A stretch of 64,000 nt of DNA from a virus. This document shows, in pieces, positions 26,677-28,377 of this stretch; positions within the stretch are counted from its first letter, which is position 1; each line of letters starts with the position of its first letter. Where the stretch lies: the IMG/VR virus record IMGVR_UViG_3300020205_002210, positions 57,250 through 121,249 of that record; one strand, written 5' to 3'. The position numbers and the translations under genes were made by a program. Under the pieces are notes generated by a model. The model was not told the DNA's origin. It did not search any database and saw nothing but the letters and a program-made list of their open reading frames with translations.

Positions 26677-27062
26677 GTCCGTTTGACTATGCCGACTACA
26701 TCCTCAGAAAAAAAGTACCTGAAGGTGAGTTGGATTTCAAAGATTATGCACCCTTCCTAATCAACAGGTCATTGTCCCACCACTTAGACTGTGTTCTCTA
26801 TGTAAATGAGTTGAACATGTGGCCAAGTATTGACAAAGACATGCAATACCACTATCTTCTAAATAGTATCAGGCCTATGAAACGAAAGTTCGTTCCATGG
26901 CAAAAGGCCGATTCTGATAAGAATATTGAGTGTGTGAAAATCTATTATGGGTATTCTAACGCCAAAGCTAAAGAAGCTCTCCGTATTCTTACTGATGAAC
27001 AAATCGCTGTTATAAAAACAAAAATAGATACAGGCGGAGTGAAGAATAATGATAGAAATTAA
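26673..27062 (+). CDS. gp62: Clamp loader small subunit
   Basis: SPFDY, YAPFLINRSLS, YYGYSNAKAKEAL. Confidence 0.92.
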   Translation: MSPFDYADYILRKKVPEGELDFKDYAPFLINRSLSHHLDCVLYVNELNMWPSIDKDMQYHYLLNSIRPMKRKFVPWQKADSDKNIECVKIYYGYSNAKAKEALRILTDEQIAVIKTKIDTGGVKNNDRN

Positions 27063-27459
27063 AGACTTGGTTGAGGTGACATTGGCAGAAAAGGATGATT
27101 TTCTTAAAGTTAGAGAAACATTAACCCGTATCGGCGTTGCATCAAAGAAAGATAAAACACTGTACCAATCTTGTCACATACTCCATAAGCGTGGACAATA
27201 TTACATTGTACACTTCAAAGAGTTGTTTGCATTAGATGGTAAACCTACCGATATTAGTGAAAACGATTTGTCTCGTAGGAATGCCATTGTTAATCTATTG
27301 GAAGATTGGGGTCTATTAACCATTGTTGATAAGAAACAAACGGAGACACCAGAACCCATATTCTTATCACAGGTTAAAATCATTTCACACAAAGAGAAGT
27401 CGGAGTGGCAATTAACACCAAAATATAATATTGGTAAAAAACCACAAACTCCACAGTAA
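27049..27459 (+). CDS. regA: Translational repressor RegA
   Basis: DDFLKVRETLTRIG, LYQSCHILHKRGQYYIVHFKELF. Confidence 0.97.
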   Translation: MIEIKDLVEVTLAEKDDFLKVRETLTRIGVASKKDKTLYQSCHILHKRGQYYIVHFKELFALDGKPTDISENDLSRRNAIVNLLEDWGLLTIVDKKQTETPEPIFLSQVKIISHKEKSEWQLTPKYNIGKKPQTPQ

Positions 27460-27463
27460 ACTG

Positions 27464-27471
27464 TATAAATA
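27464..27471 (+). promoter_or_regulatory. T4-type late promoter
   Basis: Exact TATAAATA immediately before a structured leader. Confidence 0.7.
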
Positions 27472-27476
27472 AAAGT

Positions 27477-27694
27477 GTTCTTAGTCCCTCGGGATGGGAA
27501 CTACCATGCCTCTGAAGGGTAGTAAAATAACCAGAGGCACCAATTTGCCCACCTTAGGGCCGTTTAGATGTTTCGGTAAAAAGCGTCCGTGTAATTACAC
27601 CCTCAACACGAAAGTTTGAGCCAGTATAAGGTAAGCTGGAAATACCGTCATGCCTTCGGGGTGACAAATTTTAACTCGCTTAATAGGAGAAATT
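27477..27694 (+). ncRNA. Structured 5' leader RNA: H-type pseudoknot, several hairpins, ROSE-like SD-sequestering hairpin
   Basis: ACTACC/GGTAGT crossed with TGCCTCTG/CAGAGGCA; GAAA- and TTCG-capped hairpins; CTCGCT-TAAT-AGGAG. Confidence 0.65.
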
Positions 27695-27919
27695 ATGTTA
27701 AATAATATTAACACCGCCATCGACACGTTCCAAAGTGTCAAAAGTAAATTCGTTGAAACCTGCGTTGATAACGAAGAACTTAAAAAACCACTCAATGCGT
27801 TCATCACAGCACAGACCACTTTTGCAAAGACTGTAGCTAAATCTCACAATGACTTCTTCACTTCATTGGCTATGGCAGCATATGCCTTTGATGCGAAAAA
27901 AGCCTTTGCTAAGAAATAA
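27695..27919 (+). CDS. Small alpha-helical hypothetical protein
   Basis: AGGAG RBS, 74 aa, Ala/Phe-rich amphipathic. Confidence 0.7.
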   Translation: MLNNINTAIDTFQSVKSKFVETCVDNEELKKPLNAFITAQTTFAKTVAKSHNDFFTSLAMAAYAFDAKKAFAKK

Positions 27920-27930
27920 GGAGAACACAT

Positions 27931-28377
27931 ATGACTACTTTTCCCTCTATAATGGATTTCCATAAATTCGATCCGTTCGCAGTAGGTTTTACTGATGTAT
28001 TCAAAGACTTACAAGAAATGTCCAAGACTGTCCAAAAAGCAGTTTCTTATCCACCATATAATATCAGACAGATTAAAGAAAACAAATTTGTCATTGAGAT
28101 GGCTGTGGCTGGTTTTGCAAAATCCGACATTGAAGTTACACTAGAAGGTAACAAACTGATTGTGAAAGGTCTCTCACAAGACACAGAAGCACCAGAATCC
28201 TTCATCTACAAGGGTATTGCTAACCGAAATTTCACCCGTGAATTCAAACTCAATGATAAAATTGAAATTGAAAATGCTGAAATGGCCAATGGAATGTTAA
28301 GAATCTGGTTGGAAAACATTGTCAAAGCTCAAGACGCAATCAAAAAAATTGCAGTTAAGGAGAAAGCAGACAAATGA
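27931..28377 (+). CDS. hsp20: Small heat-shock protein (Hsp20/IbpA-like)
   Basis: YPPYNI, IEMAVAGF, YKGIANRNFTREF, NGMLRI. Confidence 0.95.
   Translation: MTTFPSIMDFHKFDPFAVGFTDVFKDLQEMSKTVQKAVSYPPYNIRQIKENKFVIEMAVAGFAKSDIEVTLEGNKLIVKGLSQDTEAPESFIYKGIANRNFTREFKLNDKIEIENAEMANGMLRIWLENIVKAQDAIKKIAVKEKADK

Follow-up and report, generated by a model that had tools for sequence, protein, structure and literature searches.

Short ROSE-like RNA thermometers built of two hairpins are known from Pseudomonas ibpA (Krajewski et al. 2013, PMC3669281), and the 'avalong' thermometer of Anabaena has an upstream loop that is complementary to the Shine-Dalgarno (SD) sequence and may form tertiary or alternative pairings (PMC4152365). 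In phage T4, the gene 32 leader is pseudoknotted and lies on the most stable T4 mRNA (PMC3014915). RNA thermometers of phage genes have hardly been described so far, and a search of the open literature for a thermometer of a phage or cyanophage hsp20 gene found none. The leader described here, from an uncultured T4-like myovirus, is a ROSE-like leader extended by two uncatalogued, co-varying pseudoknot modules, the core being of an already known kind. Like 'avalong', it is a long structured 5′ UTR that ends in a ROSE-like SD hairpin, but 'avalong' has a long first hairpin and no pseudoknots, shows no sequence similarity to the present leader and belongs to a bacterial chromosomal gene (PMC4152365).

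The regA-hsp20 interval and its ROSE-like core

The window, by which we mean the whole stretch of 64,000 nt that was analysed, is part of a 121-kb IMG/VR record, and the public runs with matching DNA are lake and river samples. All features of the window given below lie on the + strand. The upstream gene order is gp44, gp62, regA (27049–27459, PF01818), and a 235-nt gap separates the regA stop codon from the next ORF, which encodes 74 aa (27695–27919, start codon at 27695), belongs to no Pfam or PHROG family and is followed by hsp20 (27931–28377, PF00011, phrog_432). The position between regA and an hsp20 operon that a sequence-only reading had assigned to the leader is borne out by these protein families, and the sequence elements which that reading named were all found where it had placed them. 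The nearest cultured relatives by RegA (~70%) are cyanomyoviruses, which have the regA-hsp20 order in common with this phage. The 74-aa ORF is also present in some relatives (L042, L046) and absent from most, in which hsp20 directly follows the leader; because in the window this ORF sits between the thermometer and hsp20, the SD hairpin would gate the 74-aa ORF first.

Related loci were collected via RegA (80 loci, 83–92% identity) and, to the number of several hundred more, with short DNA patterns. Among relatives the length of the regA-hsp20 gap changes in steps (84, 130, 176, 245 and 303 nt), and the leader is therefore built of modules: what had been taken for a single element of ~200 nt resolves into two separable modules, Units I and II, and the ROSE-like core. 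A T4-type late promoter box, TATAAATA (27464–27471), stands 5 nt past the regA stop codon and is kept at the equivalent position in most related leaders, in agreement with the earlier proposal of a late promoter; the 8-mer occurs nine times on the + strand of the genome and never on the − strand, and is no commoner than expected by chance. Marine-type contigs and cultured cyanophages carry another conserved sequence after regA, UUCGUGCGG..CUCUAC.AAAGUCGGAACACCCUA, followed by an intrinsic terminator, both of them upstream of the hsp20 promoter (L434:470–560 and L436:480–570; also L083, L088, L099, L123, L168, L175 and L189); this sequence is possibly a further RNA motif.

The leader as a whole has a predicted minimum free energy of −62.1 kcal/mol (z −0.98; 36 of 200 shuffled sequences did equally well), and support from energy was found on neither strand (z −0.98 on +, −1.19 on −). 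The proposal that the region holds more structure than chance would give is thus upheld by covariation, but not by folding energy. Covariation among homologs, which had been suggested as the check, was seen in both stems of the Unit I pseudoknot and in five further helices; many G-U pairs are retained on the + strand, and RNAalifold independently recovers hairpins P3, Pc and P5 of Unit II and hairpin I of the core. As judged from comparison of sequences, the region 27464–27694 encodes a conserved, strand-specific structured RNA. No Rfam family matches 27464–27646 at gathering scores, in keeping with the presumed novelty, and permissive searches of the same interval, with E limits of 10 for the window and 1 for ten related loci, returned nothing relevant. 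The Rfam manA motif was rejected, having no match in the window or in ten relatives. Units I and II gave no match by blastn against cultured phages, with which the core alone is shared, and neither unit was found described in the literature. A 41-aa ORF at 27494–27619 was rejected as coding on account of frame-breaking indels and the lack of any ORF common to relatives; a G-quadruplex formed from the GGG runs was dropped, since its loops would be 18 and 37 nt long.

The core (27647–27689) comprises two hairpins that resemble the short ROSE-like thermometers. Hairpin I (27647–27665), GUCAU[G]CC-UUCG-GGGUGAC with a bulged G, shows two-sided changes in four of its seven pairs. It had been counted, as GTCA..TTCG..TGAC, with the new element; it aligns to ROSE_3 and is instead hairpin I of an ordinary ROSE-like thermometer. 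Hairpin II (27675–27697), which lies past the 27674 end of the feature as first delimited, pairs CUC[G]CU (27675–80) with the SD sequence AGGAG (27685–89) and is paired in 95.6% of alignment cells across 27 sequences, with C and U variants both present. Likeness to the Pseudomonas ibpA ROSE_3 element is confined to 27647–27689 and includes a G+C-rich hairpin I with an AUGCC...GGGU top and bulged G, a short hairpin II in which the U(U/C)GCU motif of PMC3669281 is imperfectly paired with the SD, and a place before a small heat-shock gene, here hsp20 with the 74-aa ORF in between. Unlike ROSE_3, the window core has the 74-aa ORF as its first gene, belongs to a phage, stands behind a late promoter and scores below the Rfam threshold: against ROSE_3 (RF02523) the window reaches 14.5 bits (E 0.36) and the relative L035 28.6 bits (E 2.7e-4), both under the gathering score of 43 bits, and ROSE_3 was not found in a whole-genome Rfam search. 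Described ROSE elements, moreover, have no pseudoknotted RNA in front of them, whereas the window core is preceded by ~170 nt of it.

The predicted energy of the SD hairpin is −5.5 kcal/mol at 10 °C and −2.5 kcal/mol at 37 °C, and RNAfold retained the hairpin of the window at all temperatures tried. Equivalent cores precede hsp20 in the cultured cyanophages DSL-LC03, S-SRM01 and S-T4 and, among bacteria, in genomes such as that of Nonlabens xiamenensis and in betaproteobacterial assemblies. The core is an ordinary bacterial-type element, and we infer that it would work as a translational thermometer. Bacterial hsp20/ibpA genes in Bacteroidota and Betaproteobacteria (L440 from N. xiamenensis; L438, L439 and L441) have two-hairpin leaders almost identical to those of the phages, with the GCC-UUCG-GGG top and ACUCGCUU...AGGAG; there are hints here that hsp20, along with its thermometer, may have passed between T4-like phages and their hosts. 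The start region (27686–27706, GGAGAAAUUAUGUUAAAUAA) resembles A+U-rich T4 RegA operators (AAAUUAUG, genes 44 and rIIB; PMC3014915).

The core also bears on the suggestion that the structured stretch might be released as a stable small RNA acting in trans. The stretch is compact and near a promoter, and a hairpin with a short U run follows it (27647–27673). This hairpin, however, is hairpin I of the thermometer; AAA stands between it and the U run, in the marine relatives no U run is present in the spacer that follows hairpin I, and a consensus scan of 27460–27700 called no intrinsic terminator or attenuator on the + strand. Contigs from four RNA libraries, which can neither prove transcription nor show RNA ends or expression levels, begin at 27545–27571, leave regA mostly uncovered and bridge the leader and the ORFs. 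Because no terminator follows the structure and the contigs run on into the ORFs, a free small RNA is very unlikely. No RNA end was drawn from the contig starts, because depth was low, fragments were adaptor-ended and strain variation in Unit I would break assemblies.

Unit I: a conserved hairpin and an H-type pseudoknot

Unit I (27485–27539) consists of a conserved hairpin, M1, and an H-type pseudoknot, M2. In M1 (27485–27499), UCCC (27485–88) pairs with GGGA (27496–99) around the conserved loop UCGGGAU, and GGGAUGGGA is invariant, being found in all 27 of the aligned relatives. Because the stem hardly varies, M1 shows no covariation, and its support comes from conservation. The sequence-only reading had drawn the first hairpin as GTTCTTA/TGGGAAC, and this longer hairpin is indeed present in the window, but relatives keep only the inner UCCC/GGGA pairs and the loop; its outer pairs overlap the first stem of M2 by 2 nt. 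The late start site is expected 6–8 nt from the beginning of M1, and hairpin I occupies this 5′-terminal place in the relatives that have the core only. A sigma-32-like promoter in the DNA of M1 (TCCCAT) was dropped, as it has no −35 partner.

M2 (27500–27539) is formed by stem S1, ACTACC (27500–05) with GGTAGT (27518–23), and stem S2, TGCCTCTG (27507–14) with CAGAGGCA (27532–39); loop L1 is A27506, AAG (27515–17) forms the junction and the A-rich L3 spans 27524–31. The H-type pseudoknot that had been recognised from the letters of this one sequence is real, with covariation in both stems among related phages. In 16 aligned relatives of one length class, M2 is paired in 96.3% of cells, compared with 29–47% when the partners are slid, and two-sided changes affect three pairs in each stem; a shorter length class adds seven further two-sided pair changes. 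In a search by topology, 38 of 65 distinct sequences had a perfect pseudoknot following the hairpin, a result that shuffles rarely came near, and a perfect pseudoknot followed M1 in 32 of 58 distinct leaders as against 2 of 73 chance matches to the hairpin pattern elsewhere, one of those two control matches being a true leader. This one topology is realised by more than 12 different sequences of S1 and S2. What is retained is the topology itself, a first loop of 0–1 nt and an A-rich third loop, with no invariant base in stem or loop, and this lack of invariant nucleotides argues against a ligand pocket in Unit I.

Like the T2/T4 gene 32 leader, Unit I is a 5′-proximal H-type pseudoknot with two stackable stems in a T4-type mRNA leader. 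NMR work on T2 is said to have found a 1-nt first loop and a third loop of 7–8 nt in the gene 32 pseudoknot, similar to those of Unit I. The two differ in the gene they precede, in the 2–5 nt that lie between the stems of Unit I and in the conserved hairpin before it. Nor is the pseudoknot followed, as in an operator of the gene 32 type, by an unstructured A+U-rich stretch over the ribosome-binding site, but by ~150 nt of structure. An A/U-rich, single-stranded linker, CCAAUUU (27540–27546), leads from Unit I to Unit II; other leaders have linkers related to it (CUAAUUUAAG). We discarded the idea that S2 and the CCA after it might be tRNA-like, CCAA being the 5′ strand of hairpin I in shorter relatives.

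Unit II: fold and conservation

Unit II (27547–27639) is a domain of ~95 nt that contains one proven and one probable further pseudoknot. In two alignments of 27 distinct sequences each, its pairs are formed in 94–96% of cells, compared with 25–48% with slid partners, and none of 500 shuffles reached the observed values. Hairpin P3 (27547–27560; GCCC 27547–50, GGGC 27557–60) has the invariant loop ACCUUA and two-sided changes in two of its four pairs, and ACCUURGG is conserved in all types of Unit II. The small hairpin P3b (27561–62/27574–75), weak in the window, presents in its loop GAUGU (27567–71), which is able to pair with the invariant GCGUC (27583–87) to form PK-a. This pseudoknot is probable on the comparative evidence: 93–94% of its cells are paired, and its changes are one-sided and pair-keeping (U-G/C-G), two-sided change being impossible because the 3′ strand is invariant. 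Some relatives have a variable hairpin inserted in loop 3 of PK-a.

The 3′ part of the domain (27599–27639) folds into a three-stem pseudoknot, in which ACC (27599–601) and GGU (27630–32) form PK-b, together with hairpin Pc (27602–06/27616–20, loop NACGNNNGU) and hairpin P5 (27621–25/27635–39), whose loop ends in NGUAA. Two-sided changes are seen in all five pairs of Pc, and in three of the five pairs of P5 in the first alignment and all five in the second. PK-b is paired in 100% of the sequences, as U-A in 19 and C-G in 8, and when types A, B and C are combined and the register is fixed, the pairing fits 34 of 44 sequences, compared with 0–4 with slid partners, with six types of triplet; by covariation, PK-b is a proven pseudoknot. 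The sequence-only reading was right about the further hairpins GCCC/GGGC, CTCAA/TTGAG, CCAG/CTGG and GTCA/TGAC, all of which co-vary, but less so about GTGT/ACAC, the palindrome GUGUAAUUACAC (27589–27600). This weak hairpin overlaps PK-b and is 84% paired, and it is weakly supported because its middle pairs are broken in 6–11 of 27 sequences. Kissing of the loops ACCUUA (27551–56) and UAAGGU (27627–32) was rejected, as its central pair cannot form in 14 of the 27 sequences; the rival pairing of the P5 loop with ACC/ACU (27599–601) co-varies perfectly. The hairpin-in-H-type topology of Pc, P5 and PK-b is also that of three-stemmed pseudoknots in some riboswitches and frameshift signals (PMC11262651); Unit II differs from these in having neither a recoding site nor a known ligand, and in matching no family.

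Several relatives (L023, L302, L399, L412, L378 and L400) have extra hairpins within Unit II, a 57-nt insert separates Units I and II in L048 and L056, and the leader of L233 is ~250 nt long. Such additional hairpin modules sit at fixed junctions of the leader, in the pattern of the variable peripheral stems of structured RNAs.

About 30 positions of Unit II are invariant, and they cluster in loops and junctions. Such clustering is what a riboswitch-like sensor might show, in which GCGUC would pair either in PK-a or with the anti-SD sequence CGCUU, and a ligand or temperature would free the SD. The RNAalifold consensus prefers a long-range helix of this kind, 27581–85 (AAGCG) with 27677–81, which is 98% paired in 27 sequences, is an alternative to PK-a and would leave the SD free; it cannot gain support from covariation, because both motifs are invariant. 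In the comparison with 'avalong', the SD-like and anti-SD-like loops of Unit II showed no covariation with the SD region. RNAfold, however, keeps the SD hairpin of the window at every temperature tried, Unit II at other loci adjoins start regions that have no SD hairpin, no Rfam riboswitch matches and the flanking genes suggest no metabolite, so that a sensor seems improbable to us.

Modularity, portability and proposed role

Units I and II are both dispensable, for close relatives may lack either or both. Among the 80 closest, the core stands by itself in 33; Unit I is present in 13, Units I and II together, as in the window, in another 13, Unit I with a Unit II of type B in 7 and Unit II alone in 5. 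Because 33 of the 80 manage without modules, any benefit of the modules is conditional. Motif scans and a covariance model found no further copies in the 121-kb record, and a dispersed repeat or mobile cassette within the genome was rejected, there being one copy of each module and portability being evident only from phage to phage.

Unit II can move from one locus to another. In ten further phage contigs a type-A Unit II lies apart from any hsp20; there it begins 3–12 nt past the stop codons of unrelated genes (SNase, DUF7936), ends 10–20 nt ahead of unrelated start codons and is followed by CACUAAAUAC, 4–6 nt before the start codon; the genes that come after it encode M23/LysM peptidase, AAA ATPase and HExxH proteins. 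Its presence at unrelated loci means that it is specific to neither regA nor hsp20. The 3′ half of Unit II is identical at 60 of 60 positions between an hsp20 leader (L003) and an unrelated locus (L400), while the 5′ half differs, which points to exchange of pieces at the invariant GGCGUCCG. In L329, L343, L378, L400 and L407, CACUAAAUAC stands before the AUG with no Shine-Dalgarno sequence, and could be either a late-promoter variant that gives leaderless messages or an SD-free start region. Several proteins encoded downstream of CACUAAAUAC begin M(R/K)..E(F/L), in resemblance to the capsid-targeting leaders of T4 internal proteins.

This placement, after one stop codon and ahead of the start codon that follows, and the spread among phage loci would suit a processing element, either a self-cleaving ribozyme or a nuclease target, that cuts between cistrons and leaves a protected end. 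Small ribozymes in phages have similar habits of placement and spread, and a size of ~95 nt, two pseudoknots and ~30 invariant nucleotides would fit. On the other hand, no Rfam ribozyme family matches, no cleavage site can be named, and the ends of RNA contigs near 27545–27571, coming from low-depth assemblies, prove nothing, so that we give a processing element only a slight chance. Somewhat less improbable, yet still quite unlikely, is the broader proposition that Unit II is a new class of inter-cistron functional RNA, that is, a self-cleaving or processing element or a sensor that gives the thermometer a second input, and not a passive fold.

Unit II might also be an operator for a phage or host RNA-binding protein that tunes translation or decay of the downstream message. 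Its loop and junction sequences are invariant while its stems vary freely, ACCUURGG is retained in three structural settings (types A, B and C), and the domain lies directly upstream of start regions at several loci. Operators of both shapes are known from T4, a pseudoknot in gene 32 and a hairpin in gene 43, and T4 RegA sites given in the same review are similar to the start region AAAUUAUGUUAAA (PMC3014915). Yet Unit II differs from the known RegA sites, which lack structure and are rich in A+U (PMC3014915), and no candidate protein co-occurs with Unit II, the flanking genes being unrelated. An operator is therefore rather unlikely, and the same holds for the candidates for its ligand, namely RegA, a gp32-like protein, Hsp20, the 74-aa protein or a ribosomal protein.

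We propose instead, with a probability of about one half, that the region is the leader of a late operon in which cis-acting modules shield or insulate the message ahead of the thermometer. The RNA from 27464–27694 would be the 5′ untranslated leader of an operon comprising the 74-aa ORF and hsp20, and would also form the tail of transcripts that read through from regA. The core would gate translation by temperature, and Units I and II would act in cis as compact, nuclease-resistant folds that block 5′-end-dependent decay and exonucleases and prevent the ribosome-binding region next to them from forming wrong pairs with flanking RNA. In Unit II, the conserved loops (ACCUUAGG, GCGUCCG, ACG and GUAA) also suggest a defined tertiary fold or recognition by a phage or host factor. 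Shielding and insulation are supported by the precedent of the T4 gene 32 leader, which is both pseudoknotted and stabilising. Against this reading stands the ordinary thermodynamic stability of the whole leader, and against a simple roadblock the ~30 invariant nucleotides of Unit II, which exceed what a roadblock needs; because of this excess, a protein operator, a sensor and a processing RNA remain candidates.

In these phages an ordinary thermometer is accompanied by two additional pseudoknotted domains, whose structure is clearly under selection and which have been swapped between phages and between loci. If these domains stabilise or insulate the message, they would constitute a compact and portable phage tool for setting late-gene expression, which may be usable in synthetic biology. 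If Unit II is a sensor or a processing RNA, it would represent a new RNA class in abundant lake viruses. The alignments hold dozens of natural compensatory variants, which make the structure directly testable.
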